From: Deltaproteobacteria bacterium RIFCSPHIGHO2_02_FULL_40_28
GTDB taxonomy: Bacteria; UBA10199; 2-12-FULL-40-28
Direction of reading: 5' to 3'
Length of the DNA: 64,000 bases
Assembly (NCBI GenBank): GCA_001798135.1
Contig: MGRJ01000024.1
Location: 152,514 to 216,513 of the forward strand
A program made the translations under genes and the position numbers. This document shows, in pieces, positions 6,359-12,481 of the stretch (position 1 is its first letter; every line of letters starts with the position of its first letter). A model generated the notes under the pieces. That model did not search any database. It worked only from the letters and a program-made list of their open reading frames with translations, and had not been told where the DNA came from.

Positions 6359-7609
6359 CTATAATTCAAATACCAGGTATTGCAGAATTCGCTCCTGAGC
6401 CCAAAAACCAGTGGAAGGGCAGGTATCTGCCGTATGATAGGACGAATAAAGAAGCTTTCCGCTGCTCTCGGTTTTAGTCACAGTTAAAGGAGCATCCGAA
6501 TCCGAGCCCCCGGTATATTCGATGGGACCCTGAATCCAAATGGTGGGGCTTTCTCCGGTATGAGCAGCCTCCATAACAGCCCAGCCTGAAAGAAAATCAG
6601 CAATGGTTACTGTGTCATCACTATTTCTGGCTCCCGTTGTTCCATTGACAGTGGTGAGGCTACAGGTTTCCACATCTCCTGTATTTACCGTTACCGCATC
6701 TAACCAAGCAGCCATGTCCGTATCATTGACTGTTGCATCCGAACTAATGCCCGAGGTTCCATCCTGCGCAGCATCCATTGTTTCAGCGGTTGCAGCATCC
6801 GAACCTCCATCCTTAAAATCCATGAAATCAGGAAAGGGTTGTTCGATAAAATCATAGGATAAATCTGTGACGTAAAGTTTTCCCCCATTTTGAACATAGC
6901 TCTGAAATCGAGCAACCACGGAGGAATCAGTAATGACAGAATCATCCGCCCCACAGTTGATAAAAATAATATCAAAGGCATTCAAATTATCCACACTCGA
7001 AACAAAAGTAGAAAGATCCGTATAAGTACTATCTAAGGTTGAGTCTCCATCGATTAAAGTAAATTGAAAAGTTTGGGTTGTGTCAAGAAGGCCGCTACTA
7101 TCCACTGTTCCATACCCCAGCTTGGCCAACACATCTTGAATGCGATCGTAGGACCCTGTTACTACCGCCATCTCCGGAGCATCATCAGTACTAAATTGCG
7201 TGCTGGAAGCGGAAGCATTACTCCCACAATTAACGGTGGTGTCTCCCGTAAAACTACCCTTGGCAAAATTGACTGTTTGTGACCCCGTTCCGGAACATTC
7301 CACAGTAAAAGCCCCGGTGGCAGAGGAACAATCTGAGTCCGAAGCAGTGGAGGATGGATCTGAGCAACTTTCCCCATCACCATCCGTTAAGCCCTTTACT
7401 TTGCTATTTACCTGTAAAACTTTGGTTGCTGTACTGCTTGTTGAGGGAATCCATACCGTAGCACCTGAAACAGGGTCCCCATTTGGGGAGGTAACTGTCC
7501 CAGAAATTCTTCCAGCTGTTCCACTACTGCTACTGCTATCGCTTCCTCCACAACTTATGGTTGAAAATATTACAAATAAAGCTACGGCTAAAAAAGAATG
7601 AAATTTCAT
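6359..7609 (-). CDS. surface lipoprotein, paralogous N-terminus to 1893-4124
   Basis: MKFHSFLAVALFVIFSTISCGGSDSSSSSG has the same signal plus Cys-Gly-Gly-Ser-rich-linker architecture as the 753-aa protein. SD aaggag sits 7 nt upstream of the ATG at 7607-7609. Confidence 0.6.
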   Translation of the reverse strand: MKFHSFLAVALFVIFSTISCGGSDSSSSSGTAGRISGTVTSPNGDPVSGATVWIPSTSSTATKVLQVNSKVKGLTDGDGESCSDPSSTASDSDCSSATGAFTVECSGTGSQTVNFAKGSFTGDTTVNCGSNASASSTQFSTDDAPEMAVVTGSYDRIQDVLAKLGYGTVDSSGLLDTTQTFQFTLIDGDSTLDSTYTDLSTFVSSVDNLNAFDIIFINCGADDSVITDSSVVARFQSYVQNGGKLYVTDLSYDFIEQPFPDFMDFKDGGSDAATAETMDAAQDGTSGISSDATVNDTDMAAWLDAVTVNTGDVETCSLTTVNGTTGARNSDDTVTIADFLSGWAVMEAAHTGESPTIWIQGPIEYTGGSDSDAPLTVTKTESSGKLLYSSYHTADTCPSTGFWAQERILQYLVFEL

Positions 7610-7685
7610 AGATTCTCCTTTTTTTTGAAAATTTTCTACCTGCCTTATACTAGAAAGTTCCAATATTTACTAGTACAAAACTTAA

Positions 7686-7874
7686 ATCAACCGCCTTATT
7701 AATGGTCGTACGAGTGTTACAGCTCCTCTTGCTTTAAAGTTAGCCGCTGCCCTTAATACTTCTCCAGAGTTTTGGTTAAATGCTCAAAAGGCGATTGATA
7801 TTTACAACGCCTCCAAAAGCATTGGCAAATTACCCAAGGCGCTTATTGTTAAGGGTCATTTGGTTCAAGTTTAA
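7686..7874 (+). pseudogene. relic of an HTH-XRE (HigA-type) antitoxin: C-terminal ~60 codons only, no start codon, no HigB partner
   Basis: The frame translates INRLINGRTSVTAPLALKLAAALNTSPEFWLNAQKAIDIYNA...GHLVQV*, the conserved C-terminal motif of HigA/XRE antitoxins (ISxxxAxxLxxxFGTSxEFWLNLQxxYDL). A stop (taa 7683-7685) lies immediately upstream and no Met is present. Confidence 0.5.
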
Positions 7875-8808
7875 ATCTATTTATCGAAGTCATCAATTAG
7901 TCAATGGGGAAGAAGAGAATTTATGCAAAGAAATAGTAATTTTGCTTACTCATTATTGGTTACCACACATTGATCTTCAAGACGCCCTATCTTCAGGTGA
8001 AAGTCAAATTGATGTTCCGCTCGTTAATCCGGCAGATATACCGACCTATCTTAGAAGAAAGTATCCTTCTGTATCAGGTGGTATGACCCGTTTGTCTGAC
8101 GATGACACAGTAGCAGAGATAATAGTTAGCATTAGAACGCCAGATGACGAATATACAGATTATGATAGTGTGCTTGAAGCCCTATTTAGTTCACGAAATA
8201 ATGAAAAAATCCGAGAATCAGTTGATTGGGACTGGTTATCACAAAACATTCTCCAAAATCACTCAAAAGCATTTTGCGAAAATCCGGAATCATTTTTAAG
8301 AAGAGGTCTTATTGGCGCAGATGACGCTTTAGTCGGCTTTTCTGGCGAACAACTAATAGGCTTTTCAGGTATTTTTGGAGAATCCTATGATAGAAAATAT
8401 GAAGATGTTGAAGGGAATCCTATTGAACCTTCCAAAATATGGTATTCAAGGCTTCCAGAAGGGGTACGAAGAGAAGCTGAGTCATTAGGTATGGGGGTTT
8501 TTTATGTTAATATCGGAGGTGAACCAACACATGTTGGTTATGAAGAAAATCTTGCTGATCCAAATGATAGGATTGGACGGACACCAACTACAGCATACTA
8601 TGATTTAGAGGGGAACTTTTTATTTGAAATGGCATTTGCAGAATATTTTGAAGTAGAACAACATTCGGTTGGAAGACCTCGTGATTTCGTTTTTGCAGCT
8701 TCAAGTCACATGCTAGTAGATGGTTTATATTTTTCCTTAAGTGATATTGATGGCATCAAGCATGAGGAACTAACATCACTGCAATTACGCGCCTGTGAAG
8801 TCGATTGA
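7780..8808 (+). CDS. hypothetical protein (start uncertain; the listed ATG overlaps the higA relic in another frame)
   Basis: 342-aa ORF with no recognised motifs. The true start is probably downstream of 7874 and may use an alternative start codon. Confidence 0.4.
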   Translation: MLKRRLIFTTPPKALANYPRRLLLRVIWFKFKSIYRSHQLVNGEEENLCKEIVILLTHYWLPHIDLQDALSSGESQIDVPLVNPADIPTYLRRKYPSVSGGMTRLSDDDTVAEIIVSIRTPDDEYTDYDSVLEALFSSRNNEKIRESVDWDWLSQNILQNHSKAFCENPESFLRRGLIGADDALVGFSGEQLIGFSGIFGESYDRKYEDVEGNPIEPSKIWYSRLPEGVRREAESLGMGVFYVNIGGEPTHVGYEENLADPNDRIGRTPTTAYYDLEGNFLFEMAFAEYFEVEQHSVGRPRDFVFAASSHMLVDGLYFSLSDIDGIKHEELTSLQLRACEVD

Positions 8809-8964
8809 ATAAATCGGTTTCAGACATGCGCGTAAAACCTTAAGGGTTATTACGACGACAAAGAGAAGCGGAAAGCTCGTGATAGAAAACTTAAATTTTT
8901 GGTAGTGGGTCAGTTTGAAATCTGAAATCTTGCTTTTCAATCTTGATTTAGGCATATTTGTTTT

Positions 8965-9213
8965 ATGCCTAAGCGGTTAAGAATCCAACCGAAGAAAGAC
9001 TTAAACACGAGAGCCTTTGATATACTTCAACAAGTCACTGGTGAGAAACCAAAGGAAGACCCAACTAAGAACCCCGCTGCCGTGGCTCTTGGTAGATTAG
9101 GGGGGCTTAAGGGTGGTAAGGCTAGGGCTAAGAAGTTATCTGCGAATGAAAGACACCGTATTGCAATAAATGCAGCAAAAGTAAGATGGGGAAAAAATTT
9201 AAAAGATAGCTAA
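8965..9213 (+). CDS. small basic protein (82 aa), conserved KGGKARA...RW-type C-terminus, unknown function; passenger gene
   Basis: The ORF ends GRLGGLKGGKARAKKLSANERHRIAINAAKVRWGK. It lies inside the IR-bounded element. Confidence 0.45.
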   Translation: MPKRLRIQPKKDLNTRAFDILQQVTGEKPKEDPTKNPAAVALGRLGGLKGGKARAKKLSANERHRIAINAAKVRWGKNLKDS

Positions 9214-9669
9214 TTATTTTGTTTTGTTTGGAGAAGCTAAGGTTACTTGCGCTCTTATGCCATCGTAAATCATGATTATGTTACTAAGAAAGTCTCTTCC
9301 TAAAAGAACCTCATGTGCTTGATCACCATCTTTTAAATCAGCAGCAAGAAATTTGCCATATTGCTCTGTCTCTAGTGCGAGGCACACAATTCTTGTTAAA
9401 TACATCGTATGTTCTCTTGGTCCACCAACACCAGCTACCATTGCCTTATCAACTGGCACAAGACCTAATTTAGTCGCTAACTGGCTATCAATCATGCTTT
9501 GTGAAGCTCCAGTATCTATAAGGGCAAATACAGTTTCAGATTTTAATTCTTCTATTTTATCAGGAATGTCAAAAGAACATACAATCACCTGTGTAGTTGG
9601 ACCATAGTGGAGCAACCGCTGTGAATCAGCTTTACCTTCATTACTAAAACCTGCTTCAATTAGAGGCAT
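9214..9669 (-). CDS. retropepsin-like (clan AA) aspartic protease; passenger gene
   Basis: ALIDTGAS active-site motif (D-T/S-G-A) with hydrophobic flanks, at the ~150-aa size typical of bacterial clan AA single-domain proteases. Overlaps the upstream ORF by 14 nt. Confidence 0.65.
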   Translation of the reverse strand: MPLIEAGFSNEGKADSQRLLHYGPTTQVIVCSFDIPDKIEELKSETVFALIDTGASQSMIDSQLATKLGLVPVDKAMVAGVGGPREHTMYLTRIVCLALETEQYGKFLAADLKDGDQAHEVLLGRDFLSNIIMIYDGIRAQVTLASPNKTK

Positions 9670-9970
9670 GAACTATTCTATAGGCTACCGATGCTGGAAG
9701 ATTTTTAGATGGTTCGCTCCCTACTTCTCGAATTAGATAAGGACCTTTACCAAATTGTTTAATTGCTTCTTTAGCGGCTGCATCAAAAGTGTCATAAGCA
9801 CCGACAAGTTTTTCATCGTGTATAATGACAAATTTACCCATATGATGCTTCAAGAGAGTAGGCTTCATTTGCTCAAAAGCATGTATTTCTTTTTTTAATA
9901 AATCACTCATATGCATAGTATAAAACACACTGAGTACGTTTACAATATTAGAAATCATCTTACAAGCCAT
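9656..9970 (-). CDS. small protein co-transcribed with the aspartic protease (DUF-type, function unknown)
   Basis: 104-aa ORF overlapping the protease start by 14 nt. Motif GKFVIIHDEKLVGAYDTFDAAAKEAIKQFGKGPYLIREVG. Confidence 0.5.
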   Translation of the reverse strand: MACKMISNIVNVLSVFYTMHMSDLLKKEIHAFEQMKPTLLKHHMGKFVIIHDEKLVGAYDTFDAAAKEAIKQFGKGPYLIREVGSEPSKNLPASVAYRIVHASN

Positions 9971-10018
9971 GGTTTTATATGCTTGACTTTTCTTAACCGA
10001 TCAAGCATAAAAGTCATT

Positions 10019-10846
10019 ATGAATAAGTTAAACGTTAAAGATCAAGTTCGCATCGTAGCCTCTCTTGTGGAAGGGAACAGTATCCGTGCAACCTGCCGAA
10101 TGACAGGAGCTTCTAAGAATACAGTCGTTAAGCTTTTGGTTAATCTTGGCCGTGCCTGTTCTGAATACCAAGATAAAACCTTTAAAAACCTCAATTGTAA
10201 ACACATCCAATGTGATGAAATTTGGTCTTTTGTTGGAATGAAGGACAAGAATATCCCGAAAGAGAAGAAAGGCATTTTCGATTATGGCGATGTTTGGACC
10301 TGGACGGCTTTGTGTGCTGATACGAAGCTAATTCCATGCTGGTACGTTGGAGATCGTAGTGCGGAGGCTGGCTATCATTTCATGAACGATCTTGCGGGAC
10401 GTTTGGCCAATAAGGTCCAGCTCACAACTGATGGTCATAAGGCTTACCTAGAAGCGGTGGAAGGCGCTTTTGGGAATGATGTTGATTATGCCCAACTTCA
10501 AAAGATTTATGGAACAGTGAAAAAAGAAGGTGAAACTCGATACAGCCCTGCACAGTGCATGGGGGCACGAAAAGCAGTTATTACTGGCAATCCAGCTCAT
10601 GAGCATACTTCCACAAGCTACATTGAACGCTCTAACCTTACTATGCGAATGCACATGCGCCGTTTTACTCGCTTAACTAATGCCTTCTCAAAGAAGCTTG
10701 AGAATCACGAAGCAGCTATTGCCATTCATTTTATGTATTACAATTTTGCCCGTATTCACCAGACTTTGCGGGTGACACCTGCCATGGAGGCTGGTATAAG
10801 TGAACATGTGTGGGGGTTAGATGAGATAGTAAAATTATTGGATTGA
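10019..10846 (+). CDS. DDE transposase, IS1/IS1595 family-like
   Basis: N-terminal HTH (IRATCRMTGASKNTVVKLL). The core IQCDEIWSFVGMK...TDGHKAYLEAV resembles IS1 InsB (VCAEMDEQWGYVG...TDGWPLYE). Stop abuts the right IR. The ORF track starts at 9911, but the ATG at 10019 fits the HTH N-terminus. Confidence 0.65.
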   Translation: MNKLNVKDQVRIVASLVEGNSIRATCRMTGASKNTVVKLLVNLGRACSEYQDKTFKNLNCKHIQCDEIWSFVGMKDKNIPKEKKGIFDYGDVWTWTALCADTKLIPCWYVGDRSAEAGYHFMNDLAGRLANKVQLTTDGHKAYLEAVEGAFGNDVDYAQLQKIYGTVKKEGETRYSPAQCMGARKAVITGNPAHEHTSTSYIERSNLTMRMHMRRFTRLTNAFSKKLENHEAAIAIHFMYYNFARIHQTLRVTPAMEAGISEHVWGLDEIVKLLD

Positions 10847-10912
10847 AACTGACCCACTACCAACTGTAAGGCCCCATTGACTTTCCTGTTTTGGTAGAGA
10901 TATAGTTTTTAA

Positions 10913-12481
10913 ATGTCTGTTGGGTCTAAAATTCGCACGAGCTTAGGAGTTAAACTAGTGATGGCCATTACCCTTCCTTTAAGCTTAATGGCAGGCCTTA
11001 TTCTCACTCTGATTACTGCTCTTAATAGCCAATACCAAGGGTTTACAGCCTTAACTCTCATTTTAAGTCTTTTCCTTTTTTTTCAAGTTATCCTTACTTT
11101 TTTGGCAGTTTTAGTTTTTGTTTTAAAGCCTCTCCAAAATTTGTCTACAGCAGTTAAAAGAGCAGCCGAAGGAAATTACTTGGTTCGAGTTGATAAACCT
11201 AAAAATGATCTCTTAGGTCGTATTGCCATGCATTTTAACAAAGTGTTAGCAAAAGTGACAGATCTTACAGCTAAAAAAATTGAAGTCGAAAGAGAACTCA
11301 TCACCCTCAAAAAAAGTTTAACAACCCAACAAAAATTAGAACAAAAAACTCAACTCATCGATAGTACTTCTAATCTCCTCGAAGTTTCTTTGAAGGACTT
11401 ATCGCTTCTCTACCATGTGGCGCACTCTTTAATTCAAACCATCGAATTACACGAACTACTTCTTGCGATGAATCGTATTCTTTCAGGTGTGATGGGTTTT
11501 GAAAGATTTGCTCTTTTTCTTCTTAACGAACAAACCAAACACTATGAGCTGATTCAATCGCAAGGGATGGATGACATAGTAACTGGTTCTGTAGAAATTA
11601 AAGAAGGAGAAGGTTTGGTTGGAAAAAGTGCTCAAGAAAAAAGACCCATGATGGTGGGAGATATGTCTTGCCAACCCAGGCTCTACTTTATTCGAGGAGA
11701 TAAAAAAGAAGAAGGTTCGTGTTTGGCTTTGCCCTTAATCGTAGGGGAAAAAGTAGTTGGAGTTTTAGGTTTGTTAAGATCTAAAAAGGAGGCTTTTAGC
11801 CATGCCGATACCCAACTTTTAGAATCTTTAACCGATCAATTTGCCATGGCCTATGATCGTTCTAAACTTTACATGAAAACCAAGGAGCTTTCGGTAAAAG
11901 ATGAGCTGACTGGTATTTACAATAAGCGTCATTTCCAGGGAGTGCTTCATATGGAGTGGAAACGAGCCCTTCGTTTTAAAAGACCACTCTCCCTCATCAT
12001 GCTTGATGTTGATTATTTCAAAGCCTTTAACGATCGCTATGGGCATATCGTAGGAGATCGAGTGTTAAAAGAATTAGCTCATCTCATTGTTGAAAATGTA
12101 CGAGAGGTCGATACCGTGGCTCGTTTTGGAGGTGAAGAATTTGTCGTTATTCTCCCAGATACCAACTTAAAAGACGCAGCTACAGTAGGAGAAAAATTGA
12201 GAAGCATGGTTGAGGCAAGTGGAGATCGTTTTCGGTTGGCCGATGATAAAACTGAATTGCCATTAACTGTTAGCGTAGGGGCTTCATCTTATCCTGATTG
12301 GGTTACCAATGAAGAAGAGCTTATTAATACCACCGATATGGCTCTTTATCAGGCCAAAGCCAAAGGTCGAAACATGGTGTGCCCCTACGATGGCATTGGT
12401 TTTGATCAGATGGTCGACCAATCCAAAGAAATTTTGGCCCAAGTTAACCGTTTTGATACCCATGGGACATATTTCCGTTGA
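10913..12481 (+). CDS. membrane-anchored HAMP-GAF-GGDEF diguanylate cyclase
   Basis: N-terminal TM segments, a HAMP-like linker, then a GGDEF domain with RFGGEEFVVIL and DxD motifs. Confidence 0.8.
   Translation: MSVGSKIRTSLGVKLVMAITLPLSLMAGLILTLITALNSQYQGFTALTLILSLFLFFQVILTFLAVLVFVLKPLQNLSTAVKRAAEGNYLVRVDKPKNDLLGRIAMHFNKVLAKVTDLTAKKIEVERELITLKKSLTTQQKLEQKTQLIDSTSNLLEVSLKDLSLLYHVAHSLIQTIELHELLLAMNRILSGVMGFERFALFLLNEQTKHYELIQSQGMDDIVTGSVEIKEGEGLVGKSAQEKRPMMVGDMSCQPRLYFIRGDKKEEGSCLALPLIVGEKVVGVLGLLRSKKEAFSHADTQLLESLTDQFAMAYDRSKLYMKTKELSVKDELTGIYNKRHFQGVLHMEWKRALRFKRPLSLIMLDVDYFKAFNDRYGHIVGDRVLKELAHLIVENVREVDTVARFGGEEFVVILPDTNLKDAATVGEKLRSMVEASGDRFRLADDKTELPLTVSVGASSYPDWVTNEEELINTTDMALYQAKAKGRNMVCPYDGIGFDQMVDQSKEILAQVNRFDTHGTYFR

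Follow-up and report, generated by a model that had tools for sequence, protein, structure and literature searches.

A predicted IS1-family transporter insertion sequence carrying a retropepsin-like protease cassette in an uncultured groundwater bacterium

Organization of the locus

The DNA analyzed here, referred to as the window, is a stretch of 64,000 nucleotides from contig MGRJ01000024.1 (positions 152,514 to 216,513 of the forward strand; assembly GCA_001798135.1) of Deltaproteobacteria bacterium RIFCSPHIGHO2_02_FULL_40_28. A previous reading based on the sequence alone had placed an insertion sequence (IS) with perfect 18-bp terminal inverted repeats (IRs) and three passenger genes at positions 8899-10863. 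The present analysis concerns this probable mobile element, its termini, its four genes and its relatives in other genomes. The following features were assigned to it:

8901-8919, plus strand: left terminal inverted repeat (IRL), GGTAGTGGGTCAGTTTGAA, which fits the scan pattern built from relatives, GGTAGTGnnTCAGTTTGAA, without a mismatch
8965-9213, plus strand: p82, gene of a basic, all-helical protein of 82 amino acids (aa) with the almost invariant motif NPAAVALGRLGGLKGGKARA..LS..R..IA..AA..RW
9214-9669, minus strand: cargo gene 2, a 151-aa retropepsin-like (clan AA) aspartic protease with the motifs ALIDTGAS and LLGRDFL
9656-9910, minus strand: cargo gene 1, an 84-aa, weakly DUF5678-like partner, overlapping the protease start by 14 nt
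9980-10011, plus strand: putative transposase promoter with a palindromic operator-like motif (TGCTTGA at 9980-9986, TCAAGCAT at 10001-10008)
Plus strand, putative promoter boxes read from the sequence: -35 TTGACT at 9983-9988, a 17-nt spacer, -10 CATAAA at 10006-10011
10019-10846, plus strand: IS1-family DDE transposase, a single open reading frame (ORF) of 275 aa with an N-terminal helix-turn-helix (HTH) region and the catalytic residues D66, D138 and E203
10843-10861, minus strand: right terminal inverted repeat (IRR), GGTAGTGGGTCAGTTTCAA on the minus strand, which holds the transposase stop codon

The length of the transposase was counted from the start codon common to all homologues. The three other ORFs, including the retropepsin-like protease, were found where the sequence-only reading had placed them (ORF list, Pfam searches).

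Termini of the element

The 18-mer TTGGTAGTGGGTCAGTTT occupies 8899-8916, and the sequence at 10846-10863 is its exact reverse complement. When up to three mismatches were allowed, the 18-mer was found in these two places only in the whole window, with an expected count of 0.07, and two such matches were obtained in none of 100 dinucleotide-preserving shuffles of the 64-kb sequence. Both the scan and the shuffles confirm the perfect 18-bp inverted repeat and its non-random nature. The arms continue imperfectly out to 45 nt, with 73% match. It had also been proposed that the right repeat overlaps the stop codon of a DDE transposase; indeed, the stop codon TGA (10844-10846) lies inside the right arm, and in the related elements L008, L010, L044, L062, L072 and L077 the stop codon likewise overlaps IRR.

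In the relatives, 8-bp target-site duplications (TSDs) directly adjoin the GG...CC tips, and for this reason the ends of the window element were set at 8901 and 10861. The functional element is 1961 bp in length, with 19-bp IRs (18/19 identical); the T-T/A-A pair at the outside of the 18-mer belongs to the flank and not to the functional IRs. The proposed bounded IS was therefore retained while its exact ends were moved inwards by 2 bp, on the basis of 65 delimited elements. In L098, a contig considered below, homology to the window starts precisely at the IRL tip, 8901. The GGTAGTG tips at both ends are of the GGnnnTG type of the IS1 family. The boundaries of the window element are established.

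Classical IS1 is just 768 bp long, and the left repeat might be regarded as a solo or remnant end, the true IS being a unit of about 0.9 kb made up of the transposase and a nearer left IR. A search for such an IR at 9970-10018 gave none, and the best match anywhere in 8920-10842 has only 11-12 of 19 positions in common. In relatives the IRL is found 436-3826 nt upstream of the transposase start, always beyond the small-protein gene, and TSDs flank the long unit; moreover, the identical elements L077 and L079 described below prove that the long unit moves. A short IS with a solo left repeat is hardly credible. No further IR or copy of the element was found inside the window, and Rfam and tRNA scans did not detect any feature in the element or adjoining it.

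Related elements in other genomes

A scan of species-representative genomes yielded 563 stretches encoding relatives of the transposase, and the best 80 of them (58-69% identity) were analyzed. Among their lineages are Acidobacteriota, Verrucomicrobiota, Alpha-, Beta- and Gammaproteobacteria, Chloroflexota, Patescibacteria, Nitrospirota, Planctomycetota and Bacteroidota, and the relatives include those of cultured Bradyrhizobium, Formosimonas, Methylomicrobium and Hansschlegelia. Overall, the relatives span more than ten bacterial lineages with an IR consensus common to all, and many more were found on metagenome and viral contigs. GenBank and RefSeq label the genes of this clade 'IS1 family transposase' and, in the case of p82, 'histone H1' or 'hypothetical protein'.

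A search of every locus for the IR motif (GGTAGTGnnTCAGTTTGAA) delimited 65 elements, the window element counted among them. A perfect 8-bp TSD is present in 53 of the 64 relatives. The shortest element measures 1336 bp and the longest 5383 bp, the median being 3098 bp. In 42 of the 65 elements the transposase and IRR are separated by more than 200 nt, which often contain ORFs. The check for the same ends in relatives, which had been suggested together with the original proposal, thus returned a shared IR consensus enclosing variable internal content. The smallest element, L045 (1336 bp, TSD GCCGAGGA), consists only of IRL, p82, transposase and IRR. The closest relative by transposase (82%), L085, is 2174 bp long with the TSD CCTTTTTT and follows the same plan: the small-protein gene, a minus-strand gene of 139 aa, the transposase gene and a gene of 112 aa lie in this order between IRL and IRR. 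Its cargo differs from that of the window element.

Two elements of 3437 bp, L077 and L079, are 100% identical, carry three cargo ORFs and occupy two unrelated sites of one Chloroflexota chromosome. Cargo-bearing members of the clade therefore transpose as whole units. Pfam searches with the 145 cargo ORFs of the relatives identified HTH_3/XRE (12 ORFs) with Peptidase_M78/ImmA (9), P63C (6), SDH-type ClpP-like protease (5), PemK/MazF (5), SocA/Panacea (3), NYN (3), nSTAND (2) and Fic (1), as well as a D12 methyltransferase and nested transposases; HigB is also among the cargo families. These are families typical of toxin-antitoxin (TA) and defence islands.

In several loci a solo or neighbouring IRR is located exactly 8 nt before IRL (L006, 4409-4454; L015, 4327-4372; L031, 4404-4449; L067, 3964-4009; L074, 4273-4318), and in L010 (6822-6861) the gap is 2 nt. 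The 8 nt between IRR and IRL are the element's own TSD, so that the elements often insert at the tip of a resident copy's end, in head-to-tail orientation. This suggests end-targeting or tandem-dimer intermediates.

Two loci look like non-autonomous elements that retain p82. L087 (2215-4763), on a phage-like contig with a portal gene, contains IRL, p82, HTH_3 and HigB cargo, the first 55 codons of the transposase and IRR. In L134 (4936-6077), which is located on a viral contig, IRL, a p82 homologue and IRR fit within 1142 bp, and no transposase homologue was detected in the locus. Elements of the same layout are also present in cultured rhizobia, on the Mesorhizobium loti plasmid CP050295.1 (L094, 470622-473432) and on a Hoeflea plasmid (L095), with XRE/HTH cargo between the p82 homologue and the 'IS1 family transposase'; these plasmid elements would be convenient experimental models.

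The transposase

The transposase passes the cut-off of the Pfam model PF03400 (DDE_Tnp_IS1) with 33.4 bits against 24.1. Its score of 63.7 bits with the NCBIfam IS1 equivalog NF033558 is below the cut-off of 100, which places it in a divergent IS1 subgroup. Alignment of a 32-member family profile with InsB of Escherichia coli IS1A (hhalign) gave a probability of 90% and an E value of 1.5e-6 over 118 columns that contain all three motifs: CDEIWSFVG is paired with MDEQWGYVG, TTDGHKAY with MTDGWPLY, and the third catalytic-motif stretch, IERSNLTMRMHMRRFTRLTNAFSKK, with its InsB counterpart. D66, D138 and E203 are invariant across the 32 sequences. These data agree with the suggestion of a DDE transposase with an InsB-like core at the right end of the element.

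The element had been described as IS1/IS1595-like. The first half of this designation is supported by PF03400 and the InsB alignment; the second is not, since no IS1595 model appeared among the Pfam and NCBIfam matches at E ≤ 0.1, where apart from IS1 only weak matches to IS6, IS481 and rve_3 were found. Judged by its sequence, the transposase belongs to the IS1 family, not to IS1595, and is not a classical IS1 transposase.

p82 is a core gene of the clade

Comparison of the three supposed passengers with the 80 related loci by tblastn matched p82 in about 65 of them and the protease and its partner in none. A query with the whole p82 family located a member on the transposase strand, less than 500 nt inside IRL, in 58 of the 65 delimited elements and on the opposite strand only in six; in one element none was found at the threshold used. 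As the gene is present in 64 of 65 elements whatever their cargo, and even in the cargo-free L045, p82 belongs to the conserved core of this IS clade and is not a passenger.

It could be argued that the element is a minimal IS, i.e. a transposase with its IRs, in which the 82-aa protein is a third unrelated passenger. All three genes do lie between the IRs, p82 has no recognized transposition-related domain, and p82-like proteins occur on viral contigs away from any IR. This is very difficult to reconcile with a p82 homologue beside IRL in 64 of 65 elements regardless of cargo, the 1336-bp L045 included, and with the absence of the protease and partner from all 80 relatives, and we consider it very improbable. 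Of the three passengers proposed initially, the protease and its partner retain that status and p82 loses it.

Of 8000 scored p82 candidates, 7985 were at E ≤ 0.001, with no Pfam domain among the matches listed. Searches with p82 itself gave no Pfam, NCBIfam or PADLOC match and one weak match to a PHROG of no assigned function. There was no sequence match in PDB, and the AlphaFold2 (AF2) model built from 62 sequences, three helices with a predicted confidence (pLDDT) of 77, had no Foldseek neighbour. p82 is unrelated to InsA of IS1 (hhalign probability 0.06%). Its C-terminal motif also forms the N-terminus of P63C-domain proteins of about 360 aa, which are a recurrent cargo directly upstream of the transposase in relatives. 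On viral contigs an IRL was found less than 600 nt upstream in 38 of 67 near-full-length p82 matches, and the transposase is present in 36 of 80 loci. We infer that p82 may be a DNA-binding accessory factor or regulator, which perhaps works through the palindrome that covers the putative promoter of the transposase gene.

The protease cassette

The 151-aa protein is recognized by the retropepsin-like models PF13975 (37.8 bits, cut-off 28.2) and PF13650 (36.9 bits, cut-off 24.3). Its scores with the TIGR03698 and TIGR02281 models are far below the cut-offs, and it therefore belongs to neither of these named subfamilies. It also matches PDC-M08B models of PADLOC (best E 3.3e-6), which belong to the candidate defence system PDC-M08; the PDC-M08 pair as such is not reproduced, only component B being matched.

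The partner had been described as a protein of 104 aa (9656-9970). This ORF is over-extended: five aligned homologues (L089-L093) start at its Met21, and the gene was accordingly reduced to 84 aa, 9656-9910. The partner matches PF18929 at E 4.7e-4, below the cut-off. Its single-sequence AF2 model (pLDDT 69.5) has no credible fold match, and no sequence match was found in PDB. Searches of Pfam, NCBIfam and PADLOC revealed no known toxin or antitoxin domain in the cassette. A pair of small genes whose 14-nt overlap is kept in different contexts on mobile elements would be compatible with a type II toxin-antitoxin module.

Fifty-five homologues of the protease were found in 5.8 billion sequences, and in every readable context a gene of 82-93 aa precedes the protease gene with an overlap of 14 nt. 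A protease search of metagenome contigs gave one distant locus, and that of viral contigs none. The cassette occurs in the following contexts outside the IS:

L089 and L090: beside a phage integrase
L091 and L100: phage-like
L092 and L101: chromosomal
L093: 1.3-kb contig
L097: 679-bp contig, beside a tRNA-like sequence, with only the 3′ end of the partner gene on the contig

No IS1-type IR was found in the scanned loci of these eight IS-free contexts. Conservation of the pair in IS-free contexts together with its absence from the related elements indicates a self-contained mobile cassette captured by the IS. The protease-partner cassette is copy-specific cargo, and for these two genes, which lie between IRL and the transposase, the idea of passengers located within the IRs was upheld. 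Our best guess, judged from its company and its locations, is that the cassette is an addiction or defence module. No description of a DUF5678-like/retropepsin pair was found in the literature searched.

Putative transposase promoter region

The transposase ATG is only 7 nt downstream of the putative -10 box, and the transposase mRNA is probably leaderless. Across the clade, and in the closest relative L085 as well, the 45 nt preceding the ATG are conserved. The arrangement in the clade is TGCTTGA(C)-N-TCAAGCAT(AAT), a palindrome straddling the -35 TTGAC and the -10 CATAAT and ending about 10 nt before the ATG. At least 26 of 66 elements fit this arrangement when a strict pattern is applied, and it can be made out in others. 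The position of the palindrome suggests a repressor-binding site at the transposase promoter.

A 23-nt inverted repeat (20/23) links 8961-8983, at the start of p82, with 9990-10012, which comprises the promoter spacer and the right half of the palindrome. A 10-nt part of it, CGGTTAAGAA, is specific to the window copy and is not found in L085; it could be a relic of a rearrangement by which the cargo was installed. The possibility of an invertible segment between these arms was considered and rejected, as one arm overlaps the conserved promoter palindrome, which also recurs near p82 in a few relatives.

In L010, L020, L047, L065, L067, L069, L074-L076 and L083 the sequence AAACTGAC(C) is located 5-10 nt upstream of the transposase -35 box; the window copy does not have it. 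This sequence corresponds to the inner half of the IR, read in right-end orientation. It may serve the transposase as an internal binding site for autoregulation or be left over from assembly of the element.

Mobility of the window copy

The identical 275-aa transposase is also encoded on MGRZ01000009.1 (GCA_001798365.1, Deltaproteobacteria bacterium RIFCSPLOWO2_12_FULL_40_28) and on many metagenome contigs; P0121/L183 represents the same locus too. In addition, homology to the left part of the element was found on L098, a 690-bp contig from another aquifer. Position 176 of this contig corresponds to 8901 of the window, and the alignment reaches 9369 at 73% nucleotide identity, passing through p82 (88% aa identity) into the 3′ end of the protease gene; the left flank is unrelated to that of the window. 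L098 argues for a second, diverged copy of IRL-p82-protease in another context and for travel of the cassette with the element.

A number of observations weigh against 8901-10861 being one genuine, mobile transporter IS. Two of them come from checks proposed with the sequence-only reading. Firstly, a TSD is absent from the window copy (AAATTTTT and AACTGTAA match at 4 of 8 positions), and none appears when the ends are placed at 8899/10863 or 8900/10862. Secondly, no further genomic copies were seen, all 24 contigs examined having the same neighbours and representing a single genomic site. An empty site, searched for in JGI metagenomes as both flanks joined by N{0,30}, gave 0 matches. The right half of L098 is not on the contig, so that movement of this composite rests on a partial sequence. 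The -10 box of the window copy is CATAAA in place of CATAAT in most relatives. Of the 67 near-full-length viral p82 matches, 29 have no recognizable IR nearby, and the p82 family is therefore not exclusive to IS elements. Finally, the partner has no PADLOC match at E ≤ 0.1, PDC-M08A included.

Some of these observations could be explained by a dead or hybrid relic, formed by recombination between two copies or by an IS-mediated adjacent deletion, now fixed and non-mobile, with ends that arrived separately. The missing TSD, the single-copy state with the same context in 24 contigs and the weakened -10 hexamer would all be expected of it, and a sharp breakpoint between 100% and 55-80% identity inside the transposase gene of the contig L096, which has the same right junction, may reflect recombination (or a chimeric assembly). 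On the other hand, all four ORFs and the DDE triad are intact and the IRs match at 18 of 19 positions; 11 of 64 relatives also have no perfect TSD; and the same left-end composite is found elsewhere, in L098. Among the relatives without a perfect TSD is L079, which is identical in sequence to the TSD-bearing L077, and loss of the TSD therefore does not imply inactivity. Absence of the TSD from the window copy is compatible with later recombination or an adjacent deletion. A relic is, in our opinion, rather unlikely, and the window copy may still be able to transpose. Overall, the data make it very probable that 8901-10861 is one genuine copy of an IS1-family transporter IS with a core of p82 and transposase and a two-gene protease cassette as cargo.

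The breakpoint in L096, a 1952-bp JGI contig, was located as follows. The last 320 nt or so of the contig are 100% identical to 10560-10883 of the window, IRR and 22 nt of the right flank included; upstream of this point, compared with the window from 10019, identity is 55-80% and the cargo is different (P63C). Either the metagenome assembly joined different IS copies into a chimera, or the contig represents a natural recombinant at this insertion site.

Flanking genes

To the right, a gene for a HAMP-GAF-GGDEF diguanylate cyclase (10913-12481) starts about 50 nt past the end of the IS. A sigma-70-like promoter, TTGACT-18-TATAGT (10877-10906), is found between IRR and the ATG of this gene, and insertion directly upstream of it could affect regulation of the gene. 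A degenerate IRL-like 20-mer at 10889-10908 was considered as an IS relic and rejected, being better explained by this native promoter. The neighbours to the left are a 434-aa Ser/Thr/Asp-rich protein (6359-7663, minus strand), for which no Pfam family is recorded, and a 342-aa protein without a Pfam match (7780-8808, plus strand); neither is related to the IS.

Proposed mode of action and significance

In the model that we favour, the single-ORF DDE transposase would recognize both 19-bp IRs and move everything between them, generating the 8-bp target duplications in active relatives. The clade has two core genes, p82 just inside the left end and the transposase at the right end with its stop codon within IRR. 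Between them lies a cargo slot, in many relatives supplemented by cargo downstream of the transposase, with contents that differ in nearly every member and are mostly TA and defence-type genes. In the window element the slot (approximately 9214-9971) is filled by an opposite-strand operon of the 84-aa DUF5678-like protein and the 151-aa protease, a cassette that circulates independently in prophages and chromosomes and was captured by the IS.

The analysis defines exactly where a mobile element of an uncultured groundwater bacterium begins and ends and assigns each of its genes; one supposed passenger turns out to be the universal second gene of the element. A widespread IS1 lineage with near-invariant 19-bp ends ferries small TA and defence-type modules and may be an under-appreciated vehicle for them. 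The universal p82, the TA/defence cargo slot, the near-invariant IRs over many lineages and the frequent residence on viral contigs may be undescribed features. The pair of the 84-aa protein and the retropepsin-like protease is conserved, unstudied and found on mobile elements, which makes it a tractable candidate for a new TA or defence system.

A broader proposal combines all of this: the p82/IS1-type clade would be an undescribed dedicated cargo shuttle, p82 a new accessory protein or repressor acting on the promoter palindrome, the slot a hotspot of TA/defence exchange across more than ten lineages and phages, and the DUF5678-like/retropepsin pair a new protease-based addiction or abortive-infection module. 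Taken as a whole we regard it as speculative and doubtful.

Comparison with known systems

The closest well-known system is IS1 of E. coli (IS1A, NC_000913.3, 19796-20563). Its DDE core is homologous to that of the window transposase, with the common motifs DE.W..VG, TDG..(A/L)Y and IER.NL..R......R....FSK; its tips, GGTGATG/GGTAATG, are of the same type as GGTAGTG; and the relatives of the window element make 8-bp TSDs, those of IS1 being 8-9 bp in length (ISfinder). In contrast, classical IS1 has insA and insB with a programmed -1 frameshift, whereas the window element has a single ORF of 275 aa, no InsA and no frameshift. The window transposase brings an N-terminal HTH of its own and, relative to InsB, is about 40 residues longer between the second D and the E. 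The window clade possesses an extra conserved gene, p82, which is not related to InsA, and its elements with cargo are 1.3-5.4 kb in size as opposed to 768 bp.

The single-ORF and ISMhu11 subgroups of IS1 (ISfinder, TnPedia) range from 0.9 to 4.6 kb, some with passenger genes, and the clade described here may already be listed among them. By this description they share with it a single-ORF IS1-type transposase, long elements and GGnnnTG ends. Nothing relevant on ISMhu11 was found in the literature searched.

Transporter ISs (tIS) are known in IS1595 and other families. As in the definition of this class (PMC9330008), the IRs of the window element enclose a transposase and genes not needed for transposition, and in the relatives L077 and L079 the whole unit moves. 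The window element very probably fits the known tIS class and appears, from its sequence, to be a new member of single-ORF IS1-family type. Unlike in the class in general, cargo in the window clade is the rule and not the exception (median 3.1 kb), and it is placed in a defined slot between two core genes and dominated by TA and defence types.

Comparable cargo, namely TA pairs, defence-type NTPases and nested mobile elements, is carried by Tn7-like (PMC8649781) and Tn3-family transposons. The window clade is far simpler than these: its members have one IS1-type transposase and 1-4 cargo genes, and both a resolvase and targeting proteins are absent.

Bacterial retropepsin-like proteases include RimB (PMC11957791), APRc (PMC4140852) and Rlo of P. 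aeruginosa (PMC12239564). The window protease likewise has a single retropepsin-type domain with the DTGA active-site motif. As far as can be read from its sequence it differs from APRc and Rlo in having no signal peptide or membrane anchor, and it is distinguished from RimB, APRc, Rlo and PDC-M08 by being always paired with an overlapping DUF5678-like gene of 82-93 aa.

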